Of a stretch of 64,000 nucleotides of DNA, positions 1 to 33,439 are shown one piece after another. Each line of letters opens with the position of its first letter. Within the stretch, counting starts at the first letter, position 1. Location: the NCBI GenBank assembly GCA_008632985.1, contig QPGO01000022.1:496001-560000 (forward strand). The letters run 5' to 3'. A program made the translations under genes and the position numbers. This DNA comes from Psammoneis japonica. Its lineage: Eukaryota. The notes beneath the pieces are model-generated. The model ran no database searches. It saw only the letters and a list, made by a program, of their open reading frames with translations, and had not been told where the DNA came from.

Positions 1-3000
1 AACAGTGTGCCTGTCGCTGACTGAGCTTTGTGCTTCGGTTTAATCTTGAAATCTTTGTCTTTGTTCAGTTCGCGTCACTCCATCCTCTAGCAAATCCATC
101 TGCAAACATGGAAGACGACCATTCCTGCTCCTGTCGACCACCAACAGTTCAGATGGACTGTGTTTGGCATCATCTGATGAGAGTGATGAGTCCTTGTGGC
201 CACACATGTGGCCTGTGGTTTTTTCTGTTTTCTCTCTGCCAGTTTTTTTTTTCCAGTGCCTCTGAGCAGTGCCCCCCAAACAATGAAGGTGTGTGTCCAC
301 CCATCACCAGGGCTGTTGGTCCATCGCACAAGCTGCACGTGCCCAGAACCTGCAAATGTCAGACATCAGATTTGTTGCAGTTGCCACACTGCTGTGCTGG
401 AAAAACAGCCATTTTTTGCCAAGCAAAGCTGCCCTTCCTGTCACAAACAATTGGCCACAACTTCCAGGGATGAAATGGTTGCAACAACTGGCACTTGACT
501 GTCAACGTCCCTGGCTGCAGTTGCTGGAGCTCTCCAGGCTGTTGACCTCACACACATGGTTGCAACTGCCCAAAACAGATTCCATGTTTTCTCAAAAGCA
601 AAGCAAGAAGTTGCATCTGTTGCTCAGCTTTGTGGATTCCAAAAATGTCAAGCCCCAGACCATTGACTTGGTCCATCCTTGATGACACACACCGGCAAAC
701 ATGCCAACTTGGTGTTTTCTGGTGCAGCATGATGAGCAGCCTTTTTTCAGCAAAAATGATTGTCGTGTGTTTTGCCAGATGCCTTCCCCCCAGCCCCTTT
801 CTTGCAACCCTCAAAGTTTTCACCACACTGCAATGTAAGATCTGGCTGTCTTGGGTGCAAGTGCTGCAAAAGGTGGCAAAGTTGTGCACAAACTGGGTGT
901 GCAGCCACATGTTGAGGCCAGCTGACTCTCTTCCACCATTGTTTTGCATGGTCCAATTTGTGCCAAGCCAAACTCTCATCTTGCAGGTGTGGACAACAGC
1001 ACGTGCTGATTTAAACAGCTTGGCTGCATGCCTGCAGTTCCCAAATCTGTTGAGATGCAGCACAGAATTTGCACCATTGCCGCCACATTCTGCAGGTTCA
1101 GTGCTTGACACAGGCAAAGGAGAGCCATGCTCTGGCACAATGGACAATCTCACTTGTTTGACCAGAGCTCTTGTGATTTGCACCATGGCCACATCTGCAA
1201 GCCGCGTGCATCCAGGCCAGAATTTCTGTCCAACAGATTGAAAAAAATGGTGGAAAGACAGGGTTTGATGCTGGTGTCTTTCAGGTGCAAAAAAGGGCAT
1301 GTCATGCACAACCAATTTTGTTCTGCTGTGCAAATTCAGCCCTGTGCTTTTGTCTGACAGCCAAATTGTCTGCATTTTGACATCTCTTGTTCTTTTTGTC
1401 AGGTGGGTGAACAAAAGCTTCTGCTTTGCAAGCACATAAAATTTTCCACACAGGCATCAGAAAAATTGCTGAAATTGCAGCCATGCACTGGTTTTTGCTG
1501 CCATTTCTCATTTTTTTTCAACTTGGCTGTTGTTGCCACCAATCTGCAGTGCCATGTTGGGCTTCACATTGGCAAGATCATTGACTTTTTCTTTTCCCAC
1601 ACAACTTGCCTGTCACCTTCTGATGTGCCACCATTTCTCACCAACAAGAAAGCTCCAACACCTGCAGCTGCACTCACATTAATTTGACAACTCTCCTCAT
1701 TGGCTTGGTGTTTGCTCATTGCAGTGGTGTCCCTTGTGCCTCTGTGCTTTGGCCAAACAAACTCTCATCTCTGCTGTGCAACTCACAGCTTCAGCTGCTC
1801 CAGCTGATGATGGCCATGATCCCTTTTGCAATGGCTGTGTTTTGTGAGTCTTGTGGTGGGGCACCTTCAAAAGCACGGACCTTGCACAAGTGGTTCCCTC
1901 ATCTTTCAAAAACATTTTTCTGTCTCCTTTCCTTGCTGCAGAGCCCATGTGCCCTCCAGAAGTTGATGTTGTTGGAGCAGATGACTCAGCAAGTTACAGC
2001 ACTTTTCTGATTGATGATGGCCACAGCAACCTTGCTCCAACCAATCATGAGGGTTTTTGGTGGGGCTGGTGACAACCCCATTTCCAGAGAAGATGGCACA
2101 CAAGCACCATGCATCTTTGTCTCCACTTCAATTTTTTTGTCTTTGTTGATGATCCAGCATTTTTCCCAAGGAAGGGCTCAGTTTCTCAACAAAGCATTGG
2201 GGGCAGTGCACAAAGAAAGCATGCAGGCTTTGCACCACCACATCATGCACAAGCTGTGGTGCCAGTGAAGAAGAGAGACAATGCCACCCACACCCAACAT
2301 TGATGACTTCTCTCTGCTTGATGGTCAGGCACAGAGGCTGTCAAGCACATCACAGGATTTTTGTGGAGATGCAGGGTTGCATTGTTCGTTGTTCTTGCAA
2401 GACTGGTGTCAACCAAGTTGGCCCCAGCTCTTGTTGCGCCACAAAACCTTTTTGTTTTCATTGGCGACAAACAAAGAAAGAGCTCCACTGTGGTTGCAAG
2501 CCCTGTGGACCATTTGGGCCTGTGCCTTGTGCTCTTGATGCTTCAAAAGAGTGGCCTGTGTAGCATGCATGTGTTGACTGGTGACTTGCCAACTTCCACA
2601 GCATGCTCCAGGCACACTGTCAGACAGCTTCTGCTGCACACAGGAGAAACCTCAAATTTTGCAAAGAGAGTGGGGAACAAGTTGCGCAAATGTGTTTGAG
2701 CTTGACTTCTCCTTTGTTTTGCTTGTCTGGCTGGCAACATTCTCAGCCAGGAATGTGGATCTGTTCTCTTGCAAGATCAGTTATGCATCTGGTGCTGAGA
2801 GAGGCACAAATCTGAAAAAAGTGGTTTTTTGTCAACAATGTGCCATCTGACTGTGCTGCAGCAGCAGCCATGCTTGTGCCATCACCATTGCTTGTTGACA
2901 GCCAATCATGTGCTCCAAGTGCAGCAGTGGTCCAACACAAGTGACCAACACTTTGGAGCTGTGGTGTGCAAGTCTGGCTGATGCTTTTTGTTGCAGCTGG

Positions 3001-6000
3001 CAGACACTCTTTCAATGTTGGCGTGTTGTTCACAAAAGGCAGCTCAGCAAGGGCTCTTGATGCGCTGAGTGCAAATTTTCCATCAGCCCTTCATGAGTTT
3101 GATTGACCACCATCAAGAAGCCATCAAGCTGCATGAGCTGCACAACAAACATCATTGCAAATGAAAAGCACAGCTGCTTGAGCTGTTCAACCATCCAACC
3201 TGGATGTTAGAAAGGCTGTTGAAACAAATGCAATGAGCGACTTGCACTTTTCAAAGTTCAAAGTTTTCCCTGGTTGCTGTGGCAGAGGCTCAGGAAAGGA
3301 TGATTGGAGCCACAGACACCATGGCATGTTCAAATTTTAGTGCAGCTTGAGTGGAAGCTCCTGGATGAGTTGTTGCAAGACAGGAGGGCAGATCTTAAAC
3401 AGCCATGCGACAACTTTGGCAAGCACACAGTCATTTTGCTGTCATCTTGCCACTCTCTCATCTGAAAGTGTGTGCCAGGCACCACACATTGACATCAAAT
3501 TCTCACAATGAAGCTTGTTTTTTGGACAAACAACTTGACTTCAGTGGGAGCTTGCAGAAGCACATCTTCAACAAGATGGACACATGGATGTCAGCAAAAG
3601 AGCTCCCAGAGGAGATCAAAGAGATGGCTCTAAGGAAGCCAGCAAGGAAAACAAAACAGCCCGACAGGAAAGTGTCAGAAGGAAGACAACTGAGATGCAA
3701 AGCATGCAGGTTTGCTTGACATCATTGTGCCCATGCAAAGTGCTCAGACAACTTGAAGCTGTTCTTGGTTGTTGCTGCAGCAGCTCTTCAGAGCCCAAGC
3801 TTTGACATGTGGGCTGCCAAAGGCAGCTGATGTGTTAAAAAGGGGAGGAGGACAAGGAAACATGCACAGACAGCAAGCTGTTTGCAAAAGAACTTTGCCT
3901 GACATCGTCTGTGGACTGTGACCAGCTCATGAAGGAAGCTGCTGCCAACAACATTGACAGCTGAGCTGAACTTTATTGGAGGTGCCCACCCCTTCTTCTG
4001 TGCAACAATGGCAACAACCAGGCTGAAGACACTGTGCACTGAGAAGAAGCCAAGCACACAAGTGAGCAGCACCCAAGGGTGCCAGAAATCTGGCTGAATT
4101 TGCAGTGGGTGCAAAGCACACAGAGAGAGGCAAAGGCAAAACTGCAAAGATGAGCCAAGACAGACAAGCAACATGTGGCCAAACATGGAGCAACACCAGC
4201 CATTTGAGTGTCACACCTCCTCAACTTTGGTTGGTGCTTTCAGGAGGAGAGGAAAAAAGGAGGCAGTGCCTTGTGCAGACAAGAAAAAGAGGAAGAGGGA
4301 AGAGAGCAGGAAAGAGCTCTCAAGGAAGAAGGGGATGGGGAGCAGCCAAAAATGATGGCCTGTTGGTGGGAGCTGGCGACAGTGGTGGAAACAACAAGAC
4401 AAACAAGAAGAAGAATGACAAGAGCAAAAAAGCAAAAATGGCACATTGCTGAGGGTGACAAGAAAGACAAGAACAACAACAAACACATGTGCACATGTTG
4501 TTGGAGTTTTTTGGCTTGCAGACTGGCACATGATCAGTCTCGCCAACTCCCAACTCTCATTGTGTGGTTTGCAAACACAGCGCTGATGCTGTTGACCACT
4601 GCTGCCATGTCAACTGGGTGCAGAAGTTAAAAAGTGAGCACAAGACCCACAATCTGAGTTTCAAAGGCAAACTTGCCACATTGTCTGCAACCATCAACAC
4701 ATCTTTCAACTGCAACTTTGTCTGTCCCCCACAAAAACAGCCTCCAACCCCAATGTTGTTCCAACACACTCCTTTGCAATTCATTGGCCTCTTGTGCATC
4801 AAGCATGGGAGGATCACTTGGAACCCATGCCACTCAACATCATTTCAACTGTTTTGTTGATTCCCATGGTCTGCATCATCTGATTTGGCCAACAAATGAT
4901 CATTGTCAGGACAATCCCTCCTCAGACATCCAATCTTGTTGCATTTCCAGCATTTCATCTGCTTCTTGTTGCCCTGTGCAGAACTTGTGCTGTCATGTTT
5001 CCTTTTTGGTCCTGCAGATGCCCAACACCTGCAGTGCCTTCTCAGCTGAATTGGGGCAAATGTGAACCCCCAGTGTGAACTGCAAATTCAGGTCTCAAAA
5101 GACCTCCATTGCCGTTGCTGCTGGTGAATGGCAAATTGTTCCTTTCTTCATTCTGGGTGTCATCAGCATCTTTGCTGAACTCCCATCTTCTTTTTTCTTC
5201 CAGGATGATCCTGCTGCAAGATGTTTCTGCCACCCCAACCATCACACTCACAAAAAAATGGATCACAACAATCTTGGATCACCCCTTTTTCATCTTGACA
5301 AATGAGCGCCAACTGCTTCCAAGCCTTGACAGCCTGGACATGTGGGTTTGTCTTCTCATTTGTGTTGAACAAGATTGACTTGAGAATTTCCAGCAGCACT
5401 GCCATGTCCCACTCCTTTGCAACTCTCGCACCAAGCTCTGTCACTCCTTTGATCTTGGTTGTGCCAAATTCCCTTCTTTTTTGCACAGGGCAGGTGGCTT
5501 CTTCCTTGCAATCAAAGCCTGGGGGACATCTCCAGCTGGCTGCTGCCAAAAGAAACTTGTGTGTGGAATTTGTGCTGAAACAAGAGTGTGCTGGCCAGTG
5601 CATTTGGGGAGTTTGGCCAGATTTGGTGAATGCTGGACAGACCAGATTTCTTTCTTGCACGTAAAAATGCACTGGCAAAGCCCCCAAACACACTGATGGG
5701 CAGACTTTTTGCAGCCAGCCATCAAAATTTGTGCTTGATTTTGGACTTCTGCACTGGGCTTCTGACTCAGAGAACATTCATGCACTGACAAACATCTGGG
5801 CACTTTTGTTGTGCAGATGCCTCAATGATGAAAGGTGACACTGGGGTGCAAAACTTGGCACACCAACTTTGGAGCAAAACTCAGCATGCCAACTTTGGAA
5901 ACAAAAACTCAGCATGCCAGCTTTGGGGCAACTGCAAAACTCAGCAAACCAACTTTGGGATGAAATGGGTGTTGGAGCTTCGTGGCTTGCTGACAGCGTG

Positions 6001-6233
6001 CGCTCAGTCTTGTCATCTTTTGACTCACTCTGTGGCTTGCAAACACATCAACTGATGTCACTGGCTGTTGTCACTGTGTCAACTGGGTGTGGAAGCTAAA
6101 ACGTGAGCTCAGGACCCACAACTCAATCCAACTTGCAAGTGCAAACTTGCCACATTGTCCACAACTGTCAGCGTGTCTTGCACTGCAACTGCTCCATCTG
6201 TCTGTGCTTCAACAACTGCCACTGGACTGACCC
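1..6233. mobile_element. Field of old, heavily mutated transposon relics (mostly LTR-retrotransposon gag/pol-like fragments on the - strand), almost devoid of TpA and CpG
   Basis: Near absence of TA and CG dinucleotides. No coherent gene. 5163-5777(-) gives gag-like text (KIKGVTELGARVAKEWD..LLEILK) also seen at 13874-14338. Segment about 4555-5500 is repeated at 6005-6233 + 13342-14170. Confidence 0.7.
5855..5960. repeat. Short degenerate tandem repeats (AAACTCAGCATGCCAACTTTGG-like); related cluster at about 15765-15835
   Basis: About 4 degenerate 22-30 bp units seen directly. The same motif recurs at 15765-15835, probably subterminal repeats of a relic element. Confidence 0.6.
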
Positions 6234-6509
6234 TGACAGAAAATGAAGGCAAATGGCAAGAATTCAAACAACAACTCCTTGCTGCTGTCTAAACAGCAGA
6301 TGAGTCTCCGCTCAGAGACCGTTGCAGGAGCCGAAAGACGTGCAAGTCGGTGCAATCGGGCCACTGTCATTATTCTTGTGAGCCTTGTGGCTCGAAAGCA
6401 AACTACATCGCGCGTGAACGCGCGGAACTAAAGCACACAAAACTGTGCACGGTAAACTAAACAGCGCGCGACACTTCGCGCGCACCCAAATCCTGTTCAA
6501 ATCCTGTCA
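6234..6509 (-). repeat. 3' LTR of copia-1 (TpA-mutated copy)
   Basis: Aligns without gaps to 13066-13341 with 11 substitutions. Adjacent to the PPT. Confidence 0.97.
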
Positions 6510-9500
6510 CTCCCCAGTTTGCTTGAGGAGCCACAGAAACAGATTCGACTTCGGATGGAATGAAGTTCCAGAACATGAGGGGGCGGAGAAGGTCCCAGAT
6601 TTGGGAGCAACCCCAATGCTTGCTGAGAATGTCAGCAGGGTTGCGGGAGCCTTCGATGAAGTGGAACTCAAGGTGACCAGAGGCAATTGCCTCACGCACA
6701 CGGTGGAACGACAGTGCGGTGTGTCGCTTGTGTAACTTGGAGTGCGGGATGGTGGCACTGTCTACAACCGACTTGTTGTCACCGAACATGTAACTAACGT
6801 TACGGATCGGGACGCCAAGGTGGCGCAGGGTGATGCGCAGGTCGATAATCTGCTCAACACAAGTCCTTGCGGCAACAAATTCAGACCCGCAGGTCGCAGT
6901 CTCCACGGTGGCTTGTTTCTTAGAGAACCAATCAGCCGGGAATTTGTTGAGGAAGTGGAGCATTCCCATGACAGAGCGTCCGGTGAGCATGCAATGGTGC
7001 AAGTTTGCATCGACGCAGTGGGTGGTAGTGACGAACTTGCCAAGGGGCGGTGGAGCGTCCTTCGGGATCATCTCTTCTGCTTCACCACACACGGAATGCA
7101 TCCATTCATAGGCCGGAGCAGGGAGATCCGAACAGTCGGGCTCTTCCATACGAACGCGGAGAGCACCGTGTCGCATCTTGGAGAGGCACCCACAGACGCG
7201 TTTGGCACGATCCAAGTGGCCTTGACGGGGCGCAGCTCGGAAGCTAGAGAGTGACATGACGGCCGTGGTGATGTCAATTCGACCAAGAGACACTGCCCAT
7301 TGGAGTGAACCAACAAGGGACTGGAACTTGTGCATGCCATCGGGTCCCAGCAGTTCGGAAGTGTCCAGTTCGGGGTGGTCACCCTTCTCCAGAGGTGACA
7401 GGGCGTTGGTGGCAGGTTTCTCCCCAAACAGTCGGGTGCAGCTGTCGACCATGCGCTCGATGTACTTGCGCGGAGACAGGCTCAAGGTTCCGTTGGGTTC
7501 CCGGGAAAAGTCGCAACCCAGATGGAACTCAATGGGTCCCGTGCCCTTGAGCTTGAACTTGTGCTTTTCCGTGAGAGTGTCGACGAAAGATTGAGGGTCC
7601 TTCATGGCAATGGCGAGGTCATCCACATAAACGGCAATGCATTCACAGTGGTCGCCGTTCCTGCGCATCCAAATGTTGGGTTCGGCGCGGCAGGGGAAGA
7701 AGCCTTCAGCTCGCAGGCAGTCGGCGAAGCGCTCGTGCCAGCGGAGACTGGAGCTGCGCAGTCCATGCAGTGCCTTGTGGATGACAAGGATGTGTCCTTC
7801 GAGTTTGCCGAACTCGGGTCCAGCTACAATGTAAAGCTTCTCCTTGGTGGTGGCTTCAAGGTGGGCATTGCCAATGTCGGTGGCCCATGTCTCCAACTCG
7901 TTGAGTTCGGCCAGGAAAATCATCAGCCGAAGGCCACGGAGGGAGACTGCTCCGGAGCAGACACTGTCGACAGGTACGTCCGTGAGGTGCCCGTCGGCTA
8001 CGAGTCGTGCCTTGTGGCGACCGTCGTGTTTCACATCGTACACTGGGTGCACTCGAATCTTCTTGTGTCCCGCAGGAGGAGTGGAAGACTTGAAGGGCCC
8101 GCAGTCATGGAAGACTTCACATTCGTCGAGTTGGTCCATCTCGAGATTGGTTGCGTCTCCCCACTTGCGGTTGCCGTTGCGTTCGTCCAGTGACATGGCG
8201 TGTTTGTAGTTCCGGGGAACTTCGCATCCACACTTGCAGCGGGGTGCAGTGCGGAAGGAGCGAAGCTTGGCTTGGTTGGCCATGCGAAATGGCTTCTTTT
8301 GGCGCCTCGCGATGGTGCGGAACCGCTTCCAGCCATCCGTGTCGAGGAGTCCGTTCTCTCGTGCATAGATGGCACAGGTGACGGGGTCGTCCCTGGCGAT
8401 GATGGCAAGAGGCTCGGACGTGATCTCCCCACTTTCCCATTCAAGCATGATGTTGTAGCTGGAGCCTTTCCAGGTTGGGTCGTGAGGCTTCAGAGGTCCT
8501 TCGTGTGACACGATGCGTCGAAATTTCCAAACAGTGGTGTCTTCGTCTTCTTGCTCAATGTGATTCATGATGTCATTGCAGGCAAGGACTTCCTCGTATT
8601 CGTCATTGTTGACAGAGCAGACGAACTTAGTGAGCTCGGGATTGCCGTTCACTTTCCATTCGTGGTCTTCGACGGCCTTGACGATGCGAGCTCTGTGGCG
8701 TTGTCCGTCCTCTTGTGGCTGCATGAGGAAGGTACGTCCAATGATGTCTTGCGGATCGAAAACTGGCATCTTGGGTGTCCTGATCTCCCCATCAGGAGAG
8801 TCGACGGGGTTGTCGTCATGGCGAGATTTGATGATGGGTTCAGGTGGCTCCCCATCAGGAGGATCAAGACGCAGGTTTCGAACGGCAGGATCGGGGGTGG
8901 CGGAGCGGACGTTGGACCGGCAGAGGATCTTCTGAGTCTCATCAGATAGAATCTTGAAGGTCATCTGGTGGCCGACGTGCTCAGCAATGCCAACGAAGCG
9001 TCCACGCAACTCACGGGATTCAGACGGCCAATCGGAGTCATCGAGGTGGAAGCACACGGGTTCCCACCAGTGAAAGCGAAGCAATGGGCTGATGTCCGGG
9101 GTGGAGCCAGTGAGAGTCTCGAGGGGCGTGCGCCAGTGGAGACGTGGGGACGCTGCATGGTTGAGCATGAAGCACACGCACATGAGCGCCAGCAGCCATG
9201 TGTGGGCGGGCGAACCAAAACGATCCATGACAGTGTTCGCCATGCGCTTCACGGTCTGGTGTCGACACTCGGCAAAGTTTTGGTGTTGCTGGTGAGGCTC
9301 ACTTTGCCAGCTAGAGATGAAGAGGGCGCGCAGGATCCCGAGCACTTTGTTGCTGATCTCAACTTGAGCACGGTCGCTAATGAGTTTGGATGGGGCACCA
9401 CGTGCACGGATCTGATCCTCGAGTGTGTTGACAAACTCTTTGTCCATCTCAGTGCCGCAGACGTCAGTGATGGTAGACTCGGTGCCAACAAACAGTTGGG

Positions 9501-12126
9501 CGCTGGTGCAACCAGAGTCGACGGCCGGGGTGTCGGCACAAACGGTGTCAGTGGCGATGGGCTCGTTGCGGCGGTGCACATTAAGGGCGGGGTTGGGTGA
9601 TTTGTAGGCCTTGCGAAGGTGTGTGCCGGCGGGCATGCGGGCGTGCTGCGTGGTGCAGTCAAAAGTACGACGGACCGCATCGGTGGGTGGGAAGCCAAAG
9701 CAAGGCCGAAGAGACTCGAAGGGGGGGTCCTTGGGCTGTACAGTGCGCTCCGGAGGTGGAACGTCATCGCCCTGGGGGCCAATCGCATGCAGATGACACT
9801 CGCAGAACACGTCGTCGTTCGGAATGAGGTGATCATCGAGGGCGGACGCGTGATCGGCAGACAAGGAAGCGGACAAGATGGTCTCGTTGACAACGACACG
9901 ATGACGGCAGTTGCCGCATTCGTCAAACAGGTTGGCAGTGGGATCGTCCTGCAGGTCAGAGATCGCGTCGTACCACTGGTCGTCGTCAGTGACAGAGTGA
10001 TCGAGGACGGAAGGGTCCCATGTGTCATCACCGGTGAGGATGACATGGGGCAGGGTGTCCCATTCGGCGTCAGTGCAAGGTCGCATGGTGACACAAGGCA
10101 GGCCAGCCTTGATGTCAATGGGGATGACACAGCCATCAGGAGTGGCAATGCGTTGCAAGCCGTTGGGCACCTTGACAGAGCGATCGTTGACATCCTGTTT
10201 GCACCATTCGAGCTGGCCACAGGAATGGATGGTCTTGCCCTTTCCCGTGTGTGCGCACTGATGGAGGATGGCGATGACGGGACCACGCTGGGTCTCAATG
10301 ACGGCACCAGCGGTGACAATGGGGATGTCCACCAATTGATGATCGTCAATGCCCTGAACGTCGACTTGGCGAGAGGTGCGTGCAATGACGCGAACGTCGT
10401 CGCCAGCAATGCCGCCATTGGCCCCACGATCGACTAGAGCACCAGTGCGTGTGGATCGATGAGCAGAGGCAGAGCAAATGACATTGTGGTTGTTGACGCG
10501 GCGGCAAGTGCGGCCGTTGAGTTCTGTGTCATCTGCAGAAGCTGGCAGGGTAGAGGAAGCGGCGGATGGCCCCGGTCGACTGGCATTGGGGGCTTGGTTA
10601 GGAGACAACAGACGTTGCAGATCACCAGGTGGCAGTGGCTTGCACTTGGTGAGGTGCGCCAGGATGGGATTATCCGAAGTGGCATCCACATGTGGGGCGG
10701 AGTCACCAGAGTCAGCAGGAGTCGTGTTGGACAAGTTGACATCACCGTCACTCCCAAGGCGTTGGTCGTGAAGGTTGGCCGTAACAGACTCATGGCAGTT
10801 GTTGGCTCGCGGGTTGCGGGGAGGTGGACAAGAATGCTCAAGGATGATCGCCTTGGAGGAATCGGGCAACGAATCCCAGAGCCATTGGTGGTCGGGAGGG
10901 AGACGTCTCCATTGGACACCGGCGAGGCTGGGACCGCGGGTGCAGGCAGCATTGGCTTGAAGGACGTCAACGTCGCTGTCAATGTCGTAGAACACATCGT
11001 CGGACGGTTCCTCGGAGCAGACGTCGTGTGCGCACATGGCGCGTCGGGGAGCTCGAGGTGTCGTCTTGGGTTGAAATGTGCTGTCGCACTGAGCTGCCGC
11101 GGAGAGGAGCAAGCCACAGTGTTGATCGCATGTGAGGCTCTTGCCACTCTGCGCACGATGCTGATCAGCTTGGTTCTTGACAGCACGGAGTTCCTCGACA
11201 GGGTGCACGGCATTCTCGAGCATGACGCGCTTCTGTCCTTCAGAGAAGTGGTCACTGGCCGGGATGAGTGCCTCGCACTTGCGCAACTGATCTTGCCAAT
11301 GAAGGATGAACCCATGGGTCGGACCTTTCCAAGTGCCATCACCAAGACGCGCGGTGGTGAGGTGCGTGAGCAAGGTGGAGGACTCGACAGATGCGCGGGT
11401 GGAGGTGAGCGCGTGCTCAGACAAGGCGCGGCAGACGGTCTGTGCATCAGAAGACCCCACATTTTCGCGAATGAGAGCCTTGCCCTTGTCGGTGAGAAGG
11501 ATGCGTTCGAAGACGGCGAACATGCACTTTTGCTGTTCAGCAAAGAGCAGTTTGTCTTCGGGGCTGGTCGGTTTGTACGACGAGTCTAGAGTGCACTCGA
11601 CGTCTTGGGCACGGGCTTGTGCCACAAGTGAGGTGTGCCAAGTGTGCCACTGCTTGTCGGATTTGAGAGCCGTGAAAGCGGTGGGATCATGCTTGATGCC
11701 TCGCTTGAAGTCCCGCACCGGGTCGCGTGCCTTGGTCGGGTTGGTGACATGTGGAGGTGCAAGGGGTGAGCTGCCGATGGACACAGAAGACATGCAGTCG
11801 GGGCTGAGGCGGTGGGCAAGGAACTCGTCATGCGTGAACAAAGAGGAGTCATTGGCAACGTCAAGACCTTTGTGTGCTTTAACAATGTACAGACTGACTG
11901 GTGCTGCCAACATGTTCTTACAACCACGGGGCAAAGGGATCACATTAGCGCCATTGTCGCGCTCAAGCAAGTCGATTTGGGACGGCATGAACGTGAACAG
12001 TTCCTGACATGAGTCCGTGCCGTCTTGGGCCAAAGCCAAACGAAGAGGACTCCCAGCACCTTGGGCAAGCACGGTTCCAACCACGTGCTCGAAACCATCG
12101 GTTTGTTGCTGATGAGTGAGAACCAT
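6457..12126 (-). CDS. Copia Gag-Pol polyprotein (gag, aspartic protease, integrase, reverse transcriptase, RNase H); open but hypermutated
   Basis: Motifs LVDRGANGG (protease), IATDTV/LISDRAQ/NFAE (integrase DDE), KARLVADG, AVYVDD (RT), CVDANL..TGRS and NPADILSK (RNase H), in copia domain order. Likely start MVLTHQQ at 12126. Many expected Tyr appear as Cys/His. Confidence 0.93.
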   Translation of the reverse strand: MVLTHQQQTDGFEHVVGTVLAQGAGSPLRLALAQDGTDSCQELFTFMPSQIDLLERDNGANVIPLPRGCKNMLAAPVSLYIVKAHKGLDVANDSSLFTHDEFLAHRLSPDCMSSVSIGSSPLAPPHVTNPTKARDPVRDFKRGIKHDPTAFTALKSDKQWHTWHTSLVAQARAQDVECTLDSSYKPTSPEDKLLFAEQQKCMFAVFERILLTDKGKALIRENVGSSDAQTVCRALSEHALTSTRASVESSTLLTHLTTARLGDGTWKGPTHGFILHWQDQLRKCEALIPASDHFSEGQKRVMLENAVHPVEELRAVKNQADQHRAQSGKSLTCDQHCGLLLSAAAQCDSTFQPKTTPRAPRRAMCAHDVCSEEPSDDVFYDIDSDVDVLQANAACTRGPSLAGVQWRRLPPDHQWLWDSLPDSSKAIILEHSCPPPRNPRANNCHESVTANLHDQRLGSDGDVNLSNTTPADSGDSAPHVDATSDNPILAHLTKCKPLPPGDLQRLLSPNQAPNASRPGPSAASSTLPASADDTELNGRTCRRVNNHNVICSASAHRSTRTGALVDRGANGGIAGDDVRVIARTSRQVDVQGIDDHQLVDIPIVTAGAVIETQRGPVIAILHQCAHTGKGKTIHSCGQLEWCKQDVNDRSVKVPNGLQRIATPDGCVIPIDIKAGLPCVTMRPCTDAEWDTLPHVILTGDDTWDPSVLDHSVTDDDQWYDAISDLQDDPTANLFDECGNCRHRVVVNETILSASLSADHASALDDHLIPNDDVFCECHLHAIGPQGDDVPPPERTVQPKDPPFESLRPCFGFPPTDAVRRTFDCTTQHARMPAGTHLRKAYKSPNPALNVHRRNEPIATDTVCADTPAVDSGCTSAQLFVGTESTITDVCGTEMDKEFVNTLEDQIRARGAPSKLISDRAQVEISNKVLGILRALFISSWQSEPHQQHQNFAECRHQTVKRMANTVMDRFGSPAHTWLLALMCVCFMLNHAASPRLHWRTPLETLTGSTPDISPLLRFHWWEPVCFHLDDSDWPSESRELRGRFVGIAEHVGHQMTFKILSDETQKILCRSNVRSATPDPAVRNLRLDPPDGEPPEPIIKSRHDDNPVDSPDGEIRTPKMPVFDPQDIIGRTFLMQPQEDGQRHRARIVKAVEDHEWKVNGNPELTKFVCSVNNDEYEEVLACNDIMNHIEQEDEDTTVWKFRRIVSHEGPLKPHDPTWKGSSYNIMLEWESGEITSEPLAIIARDDPVTCAIYARENGLLDTDGWKRFRTIARRQKKPFRMANQAKLRSFRTAPRCKCGCEVPRNYKHAMSLDERNGNRKWGDATNLEMDQLDECEVFHDCGPFKSSTPPAGHKKIRVHPVYDVKHDGRHKARLVADGHLTDVPVDSVCSGAVSLRGLRLMIFLAELNELETWATDIGNAHLEATTKEKLYIVAGPEFGKLEGHILVIHKALHGLRSSSLRWHERFADCLRAEGFFPCRAEPNIWMRRNGDHCECIAVYVDDLAIAMKDPQSFVDTLTEKHKFKLKGTGPIEFHLGCDFSREPNGTLSLSPRKYIERMVDSCTRLFGEKPATNALSPLEKGDHPELDTSELLGPDGMHKFQSLVGSLQWAVSLGRIDITTAVMSLSSFRAAPRQGHLDRAKRVCGCLSKMRHGALRVRMEEPDCSDLPAPAYEWMHSVCGEAEEMIPKDAPPPLGKFVTTTHCVDANLHHCMLTGRSVMGMLHFLNKFPADWFSKKQATVETATCGSEFVAARTCVEQIIDLRITLRHLGVPIRNVSYMFGDNKSVVDSATIPHSKLHKRHTALSFHRVREAIASGHLEFHFIEGSRNPADILSKHWGCSQIWDLLRPLMFWNFIPSEVESVSVAPQANWGVTGFEQDLGAREVSRAV

Positions 12127-13050
12127 GGTGGACAAAATGGTGTCAGGACAATCAATTCTGGTTGGGAAGCGAAGGTGGACTCGAAACTTGGGTGAGAACA
12201 GACTTGACTTGAAATGGACTTGACTTGAAATCTTGAACTGTCTTAAAATCAGAAGTCGCCGGGCTTTGTCATCCCGTTCGTTGTTGAGTGCTAAACTTCC
12301 CATCCGGTCCGCAGAGTTGTGCCGGCACGTCCGAACCCGCAGCTGGCGGCGCTTTGGGTTGCTTGCGAGCGGAGCAGCGGGTTGTAAACCCCTGCAGGCA
12401 AGCTGACTAGAGGTGGACAAGACCCCCGAACCGTTCTTGTTTTACATCGGTTGGATTTCCCGATCAGGCTGGCCAGTTGACGCAGGCGTCAGGCGCTGTG
12501 GACGAACGAACAAACGCGGGAAAGCACCCTCGCCCCAACGCAGGCTGCAATCACGGCCACTTGCTCTCACAGTCGTCCTCGTGGACCTAGCAGAACTGTG
12601 GAGCACCAGTAGTCCGGGGTAGATCAGGTACAATGGACTCGGTGTGCTTGTAGAGTGGTGGCAAAACCGCAGTCCGAAGAGTGGGTACAGGTTCTTGGCC
12701 GTGAAGATATGTATATATACACATGTCTTCAGCGACGAAGATCCTTGAATATGTAGGGTTCTTGACCGTTAACCGATGAATGGGTATATCAAGGGATGAG
12801 GATCAAGGATAGACTTGGATATGACCGTTGAATGTATGTCTTCAGCGATCAAAGGTAGTATAATCAATCCAGATATCCAGCGGTAAGGAGACTTGACGGT
12901 GACGTTAACTTCCTGCCGATGCCCTGGTATTGAATGCGCGTAGACTTGCCGATGTATGTAGAATATATACGGAGGTCCACGTAGAATTAAAAATAGCGTC
13001 GTTGGTAAATCAACGACGACGATGGCGGTTGCTCAATGGGTTGACAATGA

Positions 13051-13065
13051 GCAAGACTGTTAATC
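13051..13065 (-). other. Putative primer-binding site of copia-1 (complementary to a tRNA-Asn(GUU) anticodon arm)
   Basis: The + strand reads GCAAGA-CTGTTAA-TC and abuts the 5' LTR. There is no TGG as required for a tRNA 3'-CCA primer. Confidence 0.55.
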
Positions 13066-13341
13066 TGACAGAAAATGAAGGCAAATGGCAAGAATTCAAA
13101 CAATAACTCCTTACTGCTGTCTAAATAGCAGATGAGTCTCCGCTCAGAGACCGTTACAGGAGCCGAAAGACGTGTAAGTCGGTATAATCGGGCTACTGTT
13201 ATTATTCTTGTGAGCCTTGTGGCTCGAAAGCAAACTACATCGCGCGTGAACGCGCGGAACTAAAGCACACAAAACTGTGCACGGTAAACTAAACAGCGCG
13301 CGATACTTCGCGCGCACCTAAATCCTGTTCAAATCCTGTCA
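13066..13341 (-). repeat. 5' LTR of copia-1 (TpA-intact copy)
   Basis: Pair of 6234-6509. Retains 17 TpA sites. Confidence 0.97.
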
Positions 13342-16300
13342 GACCCCAATGTTCCAACACACTCCTTTGCACAACAAGCCATCAATCAATTGACCTCATG
13401 TGCATCAAGCATGGGAGGATGACACTGCTTGGAAATCATGCCACCTGACACCACATCAACTTGTCCATCAACTCCCGTCATTCATCCGCATCATTGGATG
13501 CTGCCAACAGATGATTGCTGTCAGGAAAATCCCTTCTTGTGTGCCCAACTTTGTTGCACTTCCAGCATGAAAGCTTCTTCTTGTCATTCTGTGCAAAACT
13601 TGTGCCTTCAGGTCTTTTTTTGGTCCCGCACATGCTCAACACCTGCAACACCTCCTTGGCTGAATTGGGCCACATGTCAGCCTCCAATGTGAGCTGCCCC
13701 AATGCAGGTCTTTCAAGACATGCCAACAATCATTGGCACCTTCCATTGGCATCACCGCTGGTGACCTGTTCCTCTCTTTGCTCTGGGTGTCATCAACATC
13801 CTTGTTGAGCCCATCTTCTTTCTTGGCAAACTCCTCTTCTGGGACAATCCTGCCACAGGATGTTTCCACCATTTCAGCCATGCCCACAATCAGATTGCAA
13901 CAGTCTAAAGTGCTTCTCCTTCATCTTCTTGACAAATGAGCACCAGCTGTTTCCAGTCCATGCCTTCCTGGACATGTGGGTTTGTCTTCTCATTTGTGCC
14001 CAAACAAGATCAACTTGAGAGTGCTCAGCAGCCACCACGTCCCACTCCTTTGTGACTCTTGCAAGTTCTGCTGCTCCTTCAAGCTTGTGACAAATGACGG
14101 CCTTTGCACATTGCCCCACAATTGCATCCAATGCCCTCCCTTTCTGTGTTTTGCAGATCATGCTCTGCCTCACATGGTGATTGCATGTTTTGCCCCAGAT
14201 GGCCTCATCTTTCTCTGATGCTGTGGTGTCTCTTGACAGACAATCTGGCTCTCCTGACATGCTCTCCCACCTCAGAGAGGCACCAACTCCTGCATCTCTG
14301 GCCCAATCATTCTTCCAACATGTGTGTGCTTCACTCAAAGTCTTTCAAGAAATTGCCCTGGTGCATGTTCACAATCTGGAATTTTGGTCAAGGGGCACAT
14401 GCTCAAACACAGAGAATCTTGAATCCTGTTGCGGCAAATGCCTGGGAGAAGTCTGATGACAGAGCCAAGGCACCCCAAGCCTGACATGGAGAGGGTGTGT
14501 TTTTTGCCATGGCATCTAAGCAGCCCCCCTCAGCAAGTGGCAAGGCTGAGGCTGAGAGATGATTTCAAGGGCAGTTTTGCACACAGAGTTGCTCAACGGT
14601 GCTTTTTTGTTGAGTCCCTCATGCCTTCAAGATCAAACTGCACCTGCACCTGTTGCAGGTTGGAATGACAAAGCATGACAGCCGGCCTGAAAACCTCTGA
14701 CGGACGCTCATTTTGAGCTGTTGCCATCACAATGCCAGGCACAGTTTGTTTTTGTTGGGCATTGCTGCAGAACTGTAGATTGGATGGTTTGCAACATTTC
14801 AAAAGCATCTGACACAGTGTTTTGTGAAACAATTGACAAAAGTGATGACCCGCCAGGAATCCTCTAAGTTGTGCTCAAGAGTGCTGTGGAAAAAGATTTT
14901 GAGATTGATGAGAGTGAGATTGAAGCACTTTGTTTGCACTTGTCCATGGTGATTCCAAATGTCAAGTTCAACAAAGGGCATTTCAAAAAGTCATTGCCAG
15001 AGAGGGAGGATCAACAACAAACTTTTCAAGCAACAATGTGGCCAACAACTTGACAACAGCAGAAAAGAAGATCTTTCTTCTTTGAGCAAATTTTTTGGAC
15101 CAAGGCAATGATCCTTGGCATCAATTTTAAAACCAATGCTGCTGCACTGTTCTCAGTGTTCATTTGGCCAATGTTGCTGGACAACTCCTCATTGCCTGCA
15201 GCCTCTGCATTGAAAGTGGCAGCATCTTTGCTGCCATTTGCAGCTTCCCATTCCATTTTCAATTTGGTGGGCTCATCTCCATTGTTTTGCACGGGCACCA
15301 CATTTCCGTCATGCCAAACAATTGGAACAGAACAGGACAACAGATTTCACTGAAACTCAACATGTGGCACAACGGCTCCATGTGGGACATCAACCTCCAT
15401 GCCACCCCCCTCAGATCGTAAAAGGAGCACATCCTTTTGATGGCATGCTTCATGACAAATCCCATGAATCACGCCACTGCCAGTTGGGCCGGGGGCACAC
15501 CGACAATCTTGATGGCACCCTTTTCATAAAAGCCATTTGCTCCTTCTTGCAAAGGATCCAGGAAACCCTTCTCATTGCTCTCACTGTCATTTTGGAGACA
15601 GAAGCACATTTTGCCCAATGATGTTGTTGCGACCAGTGTTGTCATGGCCATGGTCTTGCCCTCATCATTGGCTTGAAACAGACAGGCAGCAAGAGCATAA
15701 AAGGCAGCTCCTCAACTTGCCAAATCATCCACTGAGTGAGGCTTGTCCACCTTTGCCATGGGTGAAACTCAGCATGCCAAATTTGGGGCAAAAGTTGGCA
15801 CACCAACTTTGGGGCAAACCTCAGCATGCAAACTTTTTTGGTGCAAAAGTTGGCAGGGTCTGCGGGAAATCGTGTTTTCAAGCAAAAAACAGAGAATCTC
15901 TGTGAGTTTCGACCATTTGCAACACCAACAGTGCAGCCGCACGTGCTTTTTCCATGTGATGAGCTCGCGCATTTTTGACACAACTTTGACACAAATCAAA
16001 GTTGTGCCACAGTTTCAAAAATGCACACCCGGGTGTTTTTAGAATTCCTGCGAGACTTCCAGTGCAAAATCCACACAAAAAAACATGACCCGGATGTGCA
16101 ATTTGAAAGTTGTGTCACACATTTTGAAAAATGTGCATGCGGGTCCTTTTGCATGTAGAAGCCTGGTGCATTCCCACACAACACAAAAAGTGGGACATTT
16201 TCAATTGTGCACATCCGGGTCTTTGCGCAGTTTTTCAGTCTCACACAGTTTTTTGCATCAAAAGTTGTGTCCAAAAATGTCTTTTCTGTGAAGTGGTGTC

Positions 16301-17300
16301 TGTGACAAATTTGTCTTGTCTGACAGATTTCATGCTGGCAGGCATGATTCACATCAATTTTGACACACACGCAGCCAGGTGGCAAAAATGGTGATTTCCC
16401 GCAGATTGCTTCCTGGCCTGCATTTTTGGATTCCTGATGGCTTCCCAGCCTTCTTCTTTGACAATGACTCCACTCCTTTGAGTGTTGTGCCACAACTTTT
16501 TGGCTTCTGTGTTGCAGTTTCATGGCTTGCCTGCTGGATGCTCAGTCTCACACTGACTCCAAACTCACTGTGTGGCTTGCAAACACACCTCTTAAATGCT
16601 GCCAAACACCATTGCCATGTCAACCGGGTGCAAAAGCCAAAAATTGAGCACAAGACCTGCGGCTCAACCCAAGTTGCGAGCGTGAATGCACTGCGTCATC
16701 CAAAATCATCAGCATGTCTTGCACTGTGACATTGTCTCTCTGTCCTGCAAAAACTGCTTCTGATCCTGATGTTCCAACACTGGTGGCTCCTCATGACCAG
16801 GTGGAAGAGGGGTGACAGGGCAAGCTGAAGAGGACATGGCATCTCTCTGGCCAAGGTGAGAAGGACATTCCCAGCAGAGTGTTGGTGGCTGCCCCCCACT
16901 CTTGTCCTTTTTCATTTGCTGCACTTGGCACATTTGTGTGCTTTTCAGTGGGGTGCATTGTTGCAACAAGCTCCACATTGCAAACAGAAAGTGGCAGCAA
17001 GGGCATCTTTGACAGGAAGCAATGGAGCCTTGAAAAAATGCACCTCAAACTGTTGATGCCACTTTGGTGCTTGCCTGGCTTCTTGGCTCTTGGCTTCTCA
17101 AAAAAGCAGCTGAAGAGAGAGAACACAAGAAGCAGAGCCAACAATTTTGTTCGGTCATGGCAAGTCTCAGCAGCCCCACACTCAACACTTGGATGTGCAG
17201 GCATGGTGGGCAGCAAGTCTTTGTGATGTGCTTGAGTTGACAAGGACAGAGAGAGGAGGTGAGTGGAGGGCAGGATGGACAGCACCAAAGAATCTGCACC
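13342..17300. mobile_element. Old TpA/CpG-depleted transposon relics (continuation of the relic interrupted by copia-1, plus others)
   Basis: 13342-13420 continues the unit seen intact at 4740-4830. Gag-like text at 13874-14338(-). Inverted CCCGGATGTGCA-type motifs at 16085-16221. A third copy of the unit lies at about 16540-16790. Confidence 0.7.
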
Positions 17301-17828
17301 ACGGCAACCAGTGCAGTGGCCAGCAGCTGAGAGCTGGCTCTGCAGTGGTGGCAAGAGCTGCTGTGGCTGCTGCCAGTGGAGAGCTCTCTGCACTGGAGCT
17401 CTGGCTCTCTAGAGTGGAGAGAGCAGGGCTGCACAGCAGCTGGCCAGCCAGCTGCTCGCTGCTGCTGGCAGCTGCCACTCTAGGGCCCTAGAGAGCAGAG
17501 AGAGCTCACAGTGTTCTCCATCCATCCACTGCCACTCTCCAGCTAGTGTGAGGTTACAGCCACCAGTGGAGAGACCCTCGCCTGCCTGGTAGAGGCCCAG
17601 CTCCGTGCGTCCGCCGTTGACTGACTCACGTCACCCAGCTCCAGCACGCGCGATCGCGAGCGTGCATCATCCATCATATCATACCGCGGCATCATCACTC
17701 ATCACAGATCACAGAATCATCACAGATCGAGCGCTTCACATCTGTCAACACGCACAACACCACCCATCACAATGCAAAAATACATTCAACCAAGAGAGAC
17801 TATTATAACAGCCTGTTAGATTTAGAAG

Positions 17829-32830: not shown

Positions 32831-32923
32831 CCACACTGTTTGACGACCTGCCGTTGATTTCGGTCGATTTGCGGTACATTCCGTTGCGATAACCACTCTC
32901 CTGAAGCCTCACAGTACAGTAAA

Positions 32924-33187: not shown

Positions 33188-33439
33188 AATGTAGCTACTG
33201 ATCCCTCTTTGTTTGACACGGAAAACGGATGTGTGATGAACTACCGCTGTGGTACAAGGCATTAGAATGAGTGAATTTAATGTCTATTCGCCACATTATT
33301 TCTAAGTTATGATTGTTTGTATGTGGATCTTCCATTTGCTTCTCCAGCAGCACCTTTGCAGCAGTAACAAAACTTTGCAAAGGTAGCCTAGTCCCACGTT
33401 GTTGCTTTCAAGCAGTAGCAAAGTCGTCTCCATGGTGCT

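Follow-up and report, generated by a model that had tools for sequence, protein, structure and literature searches.

Probable TpA hypermutation of mobile-DNA blocks in a 64-kb window of a diatom genome

Analysis of a 64,000-nucleotide stretch of the genome of the diatom Psammoneis japonica (here referred to as the window) indicates, with a probability that we put at roughly 85%, that blocks of mobile DNA were hypermutated in the chromosome after insertion, TA being changed to TG or CA by a host activity resembling that of Bigelowiella natans. This explanation is drawn from end states in that one window. It involves A:T-to-G:C transitions at TpA on either strand, in DNA tracts having fairly sharp edges that are not necessarily located at element ends, with no need for repeat homology across the whole target. 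In coding sequences, Tyr is replaced by Cys or His and NTA codons are lost. The activity may be a genome defense of the host or may be linked to silent chromatin, akin to the TpA hypermutation of B. natans.

Table 1. Features of the window (positions are those of the window; a dot indicates that no strand applies)
Feature	Positions	Strand	Basis
Older repeat, left part, TA 2.9 per kb, CG almost absent	1..6233	.	Dinucleotide counts
Copia-1, complete Ty1/copia LTR retrotransposon, 7108 bp	6234..13341	-	LTR pair and ends TGACAG..CTGTCA, RVT_2 domain
Copia-1 3' LTR, mutated, 6 TA remaining	6234..6509	-	LTR comparison
Copia-1 Tyr-poor polyprotein frame, 1889 residues plus stop	6457..12126	-	ATG at 12126, stop at 6457-6459
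Copia-1 RT domain	7441..8076	-	Pfam RVT_2, residues 1456-1667 of P0001, E 3.9e-26
Copia-1 spared tract, most of leader plus 5' LTR	12451..13341	-	TA density
Copia-1 5' LTR, unmutated, 17 TA	13066..13341	-	TA at all 11 TG/CA sites of the 3' LTR
Older repeat, right part, TA 3.4 per kb, CG almost absent	13342..17500	.	Dinucleotide counts
Third TA-poor element	28000..32450	+	TA density, exonuclease domain
Copia-2 LTR retrotransposon	39780..47468	-	LTRs, target-site duplication CATCG, RT frame
Copia-2 3' LTR, unmutated, 14 TA	39780..40003	-	LTR comparison
Copia-2 RT frame, HVDD	39898..42183	-	RVT_2, E 1.6e-22
Copia-2 5' LTR, mutated, 1 TA	47245..47468	-	LTR comparison
Old TA-poor, CG-poor block beside Copia-2, TA 2.2 per kb	47469..49250	.	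Dinucleotide counts
Host duplicate edge, copy B, adjoining TA-poor block	49087..49420	.	Comparison with copy A, 32855..33190

Copia-1 (Table 1) is bounded by a direct pair of 276-bp LTRs with TG..CA ends and by the 5-bp target-site duplication GACCC (6229-6233 and 13342-13346). It is inserted into an older repeat, whose left and right parts are contiguous by the target-site duplication. A domain search returned no integrase family at an E value of 0.01, and full-length relatives could be aligned across the entire polyprotein. The family is very abundant, with a summed contig depth of 70,000 to 165,000 in a public run versus ~60 for single-copy sequence. The element is present in four sequencing runs, all from one sample, and no RNA run was listed among those containing it.

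The original prediction of about 15 Tyr in about 1,890 codons was confirmed by counting, which gave 15 Tyr (3 TAT and 12 TAC) in the 1,889 residues of the Copia-1 frame, together with 62 Cys and 88 His. The stop-to-stop frame (12441..6457; 1,994 codons) contains the same 15 Tyr, amounting to 0.75% versus a mean of 3.86% and a minimum of 2.86% in 120 relatives, and its Cys content is 3.26% versus 0.97% in relatives. NTA codons were also scarce (9 of 1,889 versus 118 of 2,935 in host frames), and the observed/expected ratio of TA was 0.18 in positions 6457 to 12441 versus ~0.6 where the window carries genes. The motifs on which the prediction was based were all present, both in Copia-1 (SVCSG at 7965, KALHGL at 7776, HCVDANLHH at 7020, and ATCGSEF at 6897, minus strand) and elsewhere (HVDD at 41031 and VHGLKQ at 41163, minus strand, in Copia-2; HAALD at 30109, plus strand). 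At the Copia-1 sites, the consensus of 20 relatives reads DSVYSG, KALYGL, THYVDANLFH, and ATYGSEF; YVDD is still intact in Copia-1 itself (7629, minus strand). Thirty-one of the 36 conserved Tyr columns, defined by the presence of Tyr in at least 80% of 70 relatives, were altered in Copia-1 (22 Cys, 6 His, 2 Phe, and 1 Trp), as against 0 to 19% of the conserved columns for all other residue types in the same relatives.

Could this composition be native, TA being avoided because of a TA-cutting nuclease or of TA-targeting insertions and Cys and His being the normal residues? Modest TA avoidance is general, as indicated by the background ratio of ~0.6. However, the 70 relatives have Tyr rather than native Cys or His at the changed columns, and the TA observed/expected ratio is 0.49 to 0.99 at 68 loci of this Copia lineage in metagenomes. 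The lost residues include catalytic and structural Tyr, which is incompatible with selection for function, and the LTR pairs described below show recent one-way TA loss. Native composition is hardly credible under these circumstances.

The two LTRs of a new copy derive from shared template stretches and are identical at insertion. Comparison of the Copia-1 LTRs revealed 11 differences, all 11 of which oppose TA in the 5' LTR to TG or CA in the 3' LTR (17 versus 6 TA, 20 versus 20 CG). In Copia-2, which has 224-bp LTRs and an intact 5-bp target-site duplication (CATCG), 13 of 17 differences are of the TA type, with TA always retained in the 3' LTR (14 TA versus 1 in the 5' LTR), and the remaining 4 are CpG transitions. 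The two pairs together therefore display 24 TA-type and 4 CpG differences out of 28, and none of any other kind. Conversion affected 11 of 17 and 13 of 14 TA sites in Copia-1 and Copia-2, respectively (24 of 31 in all), in comparison to 0 of 20 and 4 of 19 CpG sites and to none of the ~360 other non-CpG positions of the two pairs. These counts suggest a mutation rate at TA at least about 100-fold higher than at other sites. Since the LTR differences, CpG aside, all oppose TA to TG or CA in one direction, the change was made in DNA after insertion. Codon alignment with the closest relative with DNA (L001; 62% nucleotide identity) showed that the 250 TA of L001 correspond in Copia-1 to 19 TA, 55 TG, and 72 CA, the reverse direction being rare (TA in Copia-1 at 1 of 273 TG and 5 of 401 CA of L001). 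Pooling of eight relatives indicated that TA is retained at 6.4% of positions versus 26 to 50% for the other 15 dinucleotides. Thus, the proposed polarity, from TAY to TGY or CAY, is upheld by three independent lines, namely, the relatives, the LTRs of the element itself, and the codon alignment. Among 40 of the 1,017 listed differences between family copies in the public run, 13 were of the TA type, 14 of the CpG type, and 13 of other types; this mixed set was left out of the mutation spectrum.

ADAR and APOBEC enzymes also generate deaminase-type transition clusters in parasitic nucleic acids, and ADAR- and TadA-type enzymes favor U or T before A. Their substrates are RNA and single-stranded intermediates of replication, in which they introduce strand-coordinated changes. 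The action of these enzymes would also leave the LTRs identical, whereas in the window the changes arose after integration, on either strand and without coordination. The related possibility that transposon transcripts were subjected to A-to-I editing by an ADAR- or ADAT-like enzyme and that the changes were fixed by reverse transcription would be in keeping with the retrotransposon nature of two of the elements and with the U preference of ADAR- and TadA-type enzymes reported in a preprint (10.64898/2026.01.13.699255). It is contradicted as the sole cause by the 11 and 13 TA sites at which the LTRs of one copy differ, and it conflicts with the intermingling of TG and CA outcomes on both strands. 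Flanking host DNA was mutated too, and this spill-over, combined with the LTR pairs, indicates that the changes were not edits carried in by reverse transcription, leaving RNA editing highly improbable.

We also considered that modified TA in silent DNA may lead the base caller of long reads to write G for A, so that the assembly rather than the genome would lack TA; nanopore assemblies are known to contain systematic errors at modified motifs. Contigs of the public run carry the TA-free sequence of an older block at single-copy depth (47 to 64, with 1 to 11 other letters per 500 to 850 bp), although these reads may be the very data from which the assembly was built. Tyr-poor Copia proteins with CVDD or HVDD are also found in independent public assemblies, and ~75 to 95% of the sites are converted with clean alternatives per site, unlike stochastic miscalling. 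An artifact is accordingly very unlikely.

The same recoding had been proposed for the other TA-poor elements. In Copia-2, all 6 of the 6 conserved Tyr columns were changed; as to integrase, this element gave only a weak gag_pre-integrs match (E 0.0021) that falls under the Pfam cutoff. The third element contains a frame (29353-31773) encoding a 3'-5' exonuclease domain; the ExoIII motif of this domain is HAALD, versus YAALD in the homologue. That homologue was the only one detected in a large protein search, and 26 of its 28 Tyr are changed in the element. HAALD is present as predicted, but the designation of the element as a DNA transposon found no support, the element displaying an exonuclease domain only. 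An atlas provided a lead for this element in the form of eukaryotic clusters combining DNA_pol_A_exo1 and DUF6729.

Five blocks contain 2.2 to 9 TA per kb versus 40 to 43 per kb in three gene regions, or 0 to 6 TA per 250-bp bin versus ~10. Depletion is nearly total, with TA observed/expected ratios of 0.01 to 0.25 in mutated blocks, and block edges lie at most a few hundred bases from element ends. The apparent link between TA loss and mobile DNA is thus drawn from five blocks in one 64-kb window. Tracts and elements do not coincide exactly, since one end of each Copia element is spared (60 TA per kb in the spared tract of Copia-1 versus 9 in the remainder) and ~330 bp of flanking host DNA is mutated. 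The latter belongs to a 1.7-kb host duplicate (97.5% identity) within the window. Its copy B edge of ~330 bp differs from copy A by 8 TA-to-TG/CA changes; the other 1,390 bp contain one TA-type difference, with TA retained in copy B. Mutation of this flanking host DNA indicates that the process acts on a region and that repeat homology does not drive it. Simple spreading from the flanks fits poorly with the spared 5' end of Copia-1, since fully mutated stretches lie on both sides of it; this end could instead result from gene conversion, with an unmutated member of the abundant family as the donor.

RIP of ascomycetes resembles the pattern observed here: mobile DNA is inactivated within the chromosome by massive transitions at a specific dinucleotide, and a diagnostic dinucleotide skew is left behind. 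RIP converts CpA/TpG to TpA, thereby enriching TA and creating stop codons, and is triggered by duplication. In the window, TA is lost, the change can create no stops, and the 1.7-kb duplicate is not targeted as such. Fungal RIP itself was rejected based on the reversed direction and on the duplicate, which is not mutated over its length. A RIP-like process recognizing duplicates and mutating them at TA would be in agreement with the resemblance of all heavily mutated blocks to mobile elements, with the extreme abundance of the Copia-1 family, and with the occurrence in many diatoms of DNMT4, which is related to RID, the enzyme of fungal RIP, and has no known function (PMC9998398). Such a process should not confine mutations of the duplicate to the 330 bp touching the TA-poor block, nor should it treat differently the two LTRs of one element, which are perfect repeats. 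Its chemistry would also be the opposite of that of RIP (C to T, making TA), and the main B. natans target is single copy. We therefore regard homology-triggered mutation as quite improbable.

In the old blocks, CpG decay was added on top of TA loss, probably as a result of 5-methylcytosine deamination, so that TA and CG both collapsed onto TG and CA. The CpG decay of methylated transposons is likewise regional, affects silenced repeats, and yields TG and CA products. Unlike TA conversion, it acts on CG and is far slower here, as indicated by the LTR counts.

Polarized events (34 of 46 TA sites converted) were used to define the target. The base located 3' of the hit A was T in 11, C in 14, G in 8, and A in only 1 of the 34 events, versus A in 17, C in 9, T in 5, and G in 3 at the same position of the strand that was not hit. 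Surviving TA were enriched in TTAA (3.2-fold) and depleted in ATAT (0.09-fold). Thus, T-A is targeted when the next base is not A, an A being rarely found after the hit A. Comparison with the distant relative L001 gave no clear signal for a flank preference, as expected at this level of nucleotide identity. A runs test on 127 events gave 64 runs versus 63.4 expected, so that the choice of strand appears independent from one site to the next; this result ruled out kataegis-like, strand-coordinated clusters. A transcription-linked bias for the sense strand was hinted at by the ratio of 22 Cys to 6 His and by the LTR events. An effect of the flanking base, namely, the avoidance of A after the hit A, was preferred. 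TA from the entire coding region gave 55 TG versus 72 CA in comparison to L001.

Because TA is its own reverse complement, a damaged A cannot be distinguished from a damaged T. If the process is real, our leading candidate for its chemical step is that a TadA/ADAT2-like enzyme deaminates adenine in DNA, yielding hypoxanthine, a tentative assignment to which we give a little less than even chances. The regional process could instead involve thymine in V-T-A, a modified T being mispaired or misrepaired to give T to C, for example, following oxidation to 5-hydroxymethyluracil or 5-formyluracil by a TET/JBP-type dioxygenase or following another thymine hypermodification. Every event is equally readable as T>C at V-T-A, owing to the palindromic nature of TA. 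In kinetoplastid telomeres and dinoflagellate DNA, TpA is a preferred site of base J and 5-hydroxymethyluracil, a preference that lends support to this view. 5-Hydroxymethyluracil pairs normally with A, however, and this predicts no near-complete, purely transitional outcome. The presence of 5-hydroxymethyluracil at TpA on both strands has been discussed as a source of instability (PMC11804724). The sole published case of TpA hypermutation favors adenine deamination, also without proof, and we consider thymine damage unlikely.

That case is provided by mutation accumulation lines of B. natans, in which two integrated viral regions accumulated A>G/T>C changes at TpA only, at a rate of ~6e-7 per site and generation, i.e., ~1,000 times the background, and for which an ADAT2-like deaminase was proposed (Mettrop et al., bioRxiv 2026, 10.64898/2026.01.13.699255). 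Both systems change TpA only, to TpG or CpA, in regions of foreign DNA and at rates orders of magnitude above background, with long-term TA depletion and CA plus TG enrichment; reverse transcriptase and DDE domains are overrepresented among the TA-poor genes of B. natans. TpA-only transitions (CpG aside), confinement to blocks, and a high rate, estimated indirectly, were all found in the window. The systems differ in the host, a rhizarian there and a stramenopile here, and in the main targets, proven to be integrated giant-virus and virophage DNA there and consisting of LTR retrotransposons and other repeats here. Depletion is mild in B. natans (TA 3.3% of dinucleotides, rho 0.45) in comparison to that of the window's mutated blocks, and the events were watched arising there, in contrast to the end states analyzed here. 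Tract edges within elements, spill-over into host DNA, the preference against a following A, and CpG decay in old blocks are seen here in addition. The words "diatom," "stramenopile," and "retrotransposon" do not occur in the available portions of the preprint, and a full-text literature search, the coverage of which excludes subscription journals, returned no report of TA-specific hypermutation in diatoms or retrotransposons. So far, the pattern has been described only once, in this unrelated alga.

If our main reading is correct, TpA hypermutation is no quirk of one chlorarachniophyte but a wider means of disabling mobile DNA, present in one of the main groups of oceanic primary producers and nearly complete in its effect on retrotransposons. 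This would provide a natural setting for discovering the editing of adenine (or thymine) in DNA and for identifying the enzyme. We further speculate, with clearly less than even confidence, that diatoms and chlorarachniophytes, perhaps much of SAR, share a DNA base-editing defense aimed by silent chromatin or small RNAs. Such a defense would act as a natural adenine base editor that rewrites T-A-(not A) to T-G until the invader is dead, and would be the chemical mirror of fungal RIP, raising GC and preserving open frames, which RIP would fill with stops. Dating of transposons by LTR divergence would be badly inflated, because every non-CpG LTR difference here results from hypermutation. A simple screen based on the TA observed/expected ratio or on the Tyr content of transposon proteins could map the process.

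The argument from the genetic code that TA-to-TG/CA changes never turn a sense codon into a stop is correct. The accompanying claim that they erase TAA and TAG holds for TAG and for part of TAA, but TAA to TGA remains a stop and TGA is untouched. Likewise, the expected opening of all six frames was partial: TAA plus TAG, counted across six frames, drop from 33 to 39 per kb to 4.5 to 12 per kb, but TGA stays at 37 to 56 per kb. Owing to the loss of TAG and TAA and to the lack of new stops, dead copies keep very long frames that extend through the old stop into the LTR, as verified for Copia-1, the frame of which crosses the polypurine tract, enters the 3' LTR, and stops at a TAG that survived there. 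Frames of up to 2,000 codons in mutated copies are already called as Tyr-poor, Cys/His-rich "proteins," in agreement with the anticipated behavior of gene callers: public Copia proteins of 333 to 2,061 residues contain 0.05 to 0.9% Tyr and CVDD or HVDD. Searches for DNA relatives of two of these Tyr-poor database proteins returned none, for P0362 among genome contigs or for P0364 among viral contigs. The mean open run is 32 to 92 codons in mutated blocks versus 27 in the background, and CpG decay in the older blocks can create new TGA.

At integration, the two long terminal repeats (LTRs) of a retrotransposon, both copied from the same stretches of template, have identical sequences. The LTRs of Copia-1 now differ at 11 positions, all of them TA in the 5′ LTR and TG or CA in the 3′ LTR, with no other substitution (TA counts of 17 in the 5′ LTR and 6 in the 3′ LTR; CG counts of 20 and 20). 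The 17 differences of the Copia-2 pair comprise 13 TA-type differences, 4 CpG transitions, and no other change, and TA was always retained in the 3′ LTR (14 TA versus 1 in the 5′ LTR). For both pairs, 24 of the 31 TA sites had changed versus 0 of ~360 other non-CpG positions, indicating that TA sites changed at no less than about a hundred times the rate of these other positions. The hypermutation is chromosomal and occurred after insertion. Since LTRs that were identical at integration now differ at TA sites, RNA editing before reverse transcription is excluded as the sole cause.

The window is diatom nuclear DNA. Its ordinary genes encode a presequence protease, a SAICAR synthetase, a bZIP factor, an EF-hand channel, and an MFS transporter, and the named relatives nearest to these are from diatoms (for the presequence protease, Attheya at 70%, then Odontella, Thalassiosira, and Nitzschia). 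The mobile elements and other features are listed in the table.

Features of the window, with coordinates on the forward strand
Feature	Position	Strand	Details
Copia-1, complete Ty1/copia retrotransposon	6234-13341	-	276-bp LTRs; ends TGACAG..CTGTCA; 5-bp target-site duplication GACCC
Copia-1 leader, 5′ LTR to polyprotein ATG	12127-13065		~940 nt, unusually long; natively rich in TA (maximum, 23 TA per 250 bp)
Older repeat hosting the Copia-1 insertion	1-6233 and 13342-17500		
Third element	28000-32450		3′-5′ exonuclease domain
Frame upstream of exonuclease frame	27901-29349		483 codons; directly upstream, one surviving TAA between
Exonuclease-bearing TA-poor frame	29353-31773	+	807 codons; 3′-5′ exonuclease domain
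Host-derived duplicate	32855-34576 and 49087-50814		97.5% identity
Duplication including ends	32855-34773 and 48982-50814		~1.7-1.9 kb; ~190 bp permuted between the ends of the copies
RRM-domain gene within duplication	33388-34194 and 49678-50592		
Tandem repeat, unmutated intergenic or genic DNA	35191-35395		102 bp x 2
Tandem repeat, unmutated intergenic or genic DNA	35524-36063		75 bp x ~7 (93-97% alike)
Copia-2	39780-47468	-	Target-site duplication CATCG
Tandem duplication within Copia-2	42046-42277		116 bp; 5 differences (2 TA-type, 3 CpG-type)
Additional old block	47469-49250		

The original prediction described the Copia-1 polyprotein frame as tyrosine-poor, and this was confirmed: between its ATG at 12126 and its stop at 6457, the frame encodes 1889 residues, of which 15 are Tyr, 62 are Cys, and 88 are His, and it remains open as far upstream as 12441 (1994 codons). 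Copia-1 also encodes a Copia-type reverse transcriptase domain. In comparison to 120 relatives retrieved by a search of 5.8 billion proteins, Copia-1 contains 0.75% Tyr versus a mean of 3.86% (minimum, 2.86%) and 3.26% Cys versus a mean of 0.97%. The motifs quoted in the prediction were each found in place, with Cys or His where the consensus of 20 relatives contains Tyr (DSVYSG, KALYGL, HYVDA, and ATYGSEF). At the nucleotide level, the observed/expected ratio for TA was 0.18 in this frame versus ~0.6 in gene regions, with elevated CA and TG; NTA codons accounted for 9 of 1889 codons versus 118 of 2935 in host frames, and T-A codon junctions for 21/428 versus 128/795.

Alignment of Copia-1 with the 70 of the 120 relatives that have at least 1750 residues provided 739 columns occupied by one residue in at least 80% of the relatives. 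The proposed direction of change, from TAY to TGY or CAY, was borne out, with 31 of the 36 conserved Tyr columns changed in Copia-1 (22 Cys, 6 His, 2 Phe, and 1 Trp); each of the other residue types was changed at no more than 19% of its own conserved columns. In a codon alignment with L001, the closest Copia-1 relative with DNA (62% nucleotide identity), of the 250 TA of L001, 19 are TA, 55 are TG, and 72 are CA in Copia-1; in the reverse direction, Copia-1 has TA at 1 of the 273 TG and 5 of the 401 CA of L001. Retention in eight pooled relatives was 6.4% for TA versus 26 to 50% for every other dinucleotide. In 68 metagenome loci encoding Copia-1 relatives, the TA observed/expected ratio was 0.49 to 0.99, these loci being the best-scoring ones and, since Tyr was part of one of the two patterns searched for, a sample biased against mutated copies. 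On these comparisons, the Copia lineage is not natively TA-poor. The changes at conserved columns, the one-way codon changes with respect to L001, and the TA-normal relatives all point to TA as the starting state. An explanation by native composition is contradicted by the ratios of the 68 loci and by the one-way loss of TA within LTR pairs.

Four comparisons could be polarised, namely, the two LTR pairs, the edge of the host-derived duplicate, and the 116-bp tandem repeat, in which 34 of 46 TA sites were converted. The base located 3′ of the A that became G was T (11 sites), C (14), G (8), or A (1); on the opposite strand of the same sites, the base 3′ of A was A (17), C (9), T (5), or G (3). 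Among TA surviving in mutated blocks (n = 182), in comparison to the background (n = 1366), TTAA and CTAA were enriched 3.2-fold and 2.5-fold, respectively, and ATAT and ATAC were present at 0.09 and 0.21 of the background. The process thus targets T-A-(not A), which reads (not T)-T-A when viewed from the complementary strand. Because of this flank rule, Tyr (TAY) mostly becomes Cys, and a transcription-strand bias is unnecessary. For all coding-region TA of Copia-1 compared with L001, the 55 TG and 72 CA outcomes followed each other in random order (64 runs versus 63.4 expected in a runs test), thereby ruling out strand-coordinated clusters of the type generated by deaminases acting on exposed single strands.

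In 250-bp bins, mutated blocks contained 0 to 6 TA and gene regions ~10 (2.2 to 9 TA per kb in five blocks versus 40 to 43 in three gene regions). The edges of the mutated tracts and the ends of the elements did not match exactly. The final 890 bp of Copia-1 (12451-13341), comprising most of the leader and the 5′ LTR, retained 60 TA per kb, and the 3′ LTR of Copia-2, which adjoins unmutated host DNA, was spared. The spared 5′ end of Copia-1, which lies between two mutated stretches, may have arisen by gene conversion from an unmutated copy of the family. The host-derived duplicate carried eight TA-to-TG/CA changes within the 330 bp adjoining the old block; its remaining 1390 bp contained a single TA-type difference, which runs the other way. 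The process is regional and not homology-driven. RIP-like repeat sensing predicts equal treatment of the entire duplicate and of both LTRs, and it is contradicted because the duplicate was altered mainly in 330 bp and because the LTRs of one element were treated differently.

In the old blocks (1-6233, 13342-17500, and 47469-49250), TA was reduced to 2 to 3 per kb, with observed/expected ratios of 0.05 to 0.3 for CG and ~1.8 to 1.9 for TG plus CA. Since CG is intact in the young Copia elements and both TA and CG have been lost in the old blocks, TA loss is much faster, and CpG decay comes later. Such decay is expected from the methylation of diatom transposons described in PMC9998398. Copia-2 encodes 1 Tyr in 762 residues, versus 3.24% in 107 relatives, with all six conserved Tyr columns changed and a catalytic motif reading HVDD. 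The exonuclease-bearing frame contains 0.37% Tyr. It had one homologue of similar length (443-1413 residues; 57% identity) in the search of 5.8 billion proteins, and 26 of the 28 Tyr of the homologue differ (10 Cys and 9 His), among them the ExoIII-motif Tyr. Eukaryotic clusters pairing a 3′-5′ exonuclease domain with DUF6729 provided an atlas lead for this element.

The frames of Copia-1 and Copia-2 both extend beyond their old ends. Among the listed relatives of Copia-2, all those reaching the C terminus stop at residue 719, and the following codon in Copia-2 is CAG. Copia-1 relatives end opposite residues 1966 to 1984, where the copy has CAA (1973), TGG (1976), and CAG (1983), one of which would be the old stop; read-through into the LTR, as described in the prediction, ends at a surviving TAG inside it. 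In the genetic code, TAG can become TGG or CAG, and TAA can become CAA or TGA. Thus, the claim that TA-to-TG/CA changes never create a stop from a sense codon was correct, but TAA is not always erased, since it may yield TGA. The related claim that all six frames open up also held in part: counted across six frames, TAA plus TAG dropped from 33-39 per kb to 4.5-12 per kb, and the mean open run increased from ~27 to 32-92 codons in mutated blocks, but TGA was not reduced, remaining at or above background (37 to 56 versus 34 to 37 per kb).

Exact-word contigs from a public run, which may be the assembly's own data, showed few differences from the old block that lacks TA and covered it at a depth of 47 to 64, the level of single-copy DNA. 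A base-calling artefact is contradicted by the TA-free block in these contigs and by the Tyr-poor Copia proteins of other assemblies. Four of 150 cluster representatives related to Copia-2 contained 0.05 to 0.9% Tyr, with elevated Cys and His. These Copia polyproteins of public collections (database proteins P0364, P0362, P0272, and P0341; 333 to 2061 residues) trace to ENA assemblies and a single NCBI record, and one 2061-residue "protein" has only one Tyr. All but P0272 display CVDD, HVDD, or SLCGLRQ in place of the YVDD and SLYGLKQ of relatives. The four probably represent hypermutated copies that were taken for genes, as anticipated for annotation pipelines, in other assemblies that are not necessarily from other species. 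Thus, the recoding extends to further public assemblies, and frames of this type are indeed output by gene callers.

The changes observed in this 64-kb window were made in the DNA after integration; they are regional and TA-specific and affect both strands, one site at a time. Four rival explanations (a RIP-like trigger, RNA editing, native composition, and a base-calling artefact) each conflict with one or more of the tests. These end states, in one 64-kb window, suggest that the host acts against DNA that is silenced or foreign. The leading guess for the chemical step, to which we assign a probability of about 0.4, is that a TadA/ADAT2-like enzyme would deaminate adenine to hypoxanthine; enzymes of this family naturally act on the A following the invariant U33 in the anticodon loop. 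Thymine-directed modification as the damaging step receives a lower probability, as the palindromic TA target cannot separate a damaged T from a damaged A; an unknown chemistry takes the remaining probability.

A full-text literature search retrieved one close precedent, a preprint on Bigelowiella natans (Mettrop et al. 2026, 10.64898/2026.01.13.699255), and no report of the signature in diatoms. According to the preprint, 231 of 302 new single-nucleotide mutations in mutation-accumulation lines were in two integrated viral regions, where, with a single exception, they were A>G or T>C, every such change being on TpA, at a rate of ~6e-7 per site per generation. The B. natans genome contains further TA-poor, CA- plus TG-rich clusters, in which reverse transcriptase and DDE domains are overrepresented, and the authors propose an ADAT2-like DNA adenine deaminase; diatoms, stramenopiles, and retrotransposons are unmentioned in the preprint. 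The present case joins this very recently described kind of hypermutation and adds a second eukaryotic lineage, retrotransposon targets, near-complete conversion, edges within single elements, spill-over into host DNA, and the flank rule.

In four public sequencing runs of one sample (X1 to X4), the summed contig depth for the Copia-1 family (6001-13800) was 70,000 to 165,000 versus ~60 for single-copy DNA, and run X1 yielded 15,780 contigs over positions 1-18000. In the contigs of the run, the first 4.2 kb of the window now occurs as a single copy.
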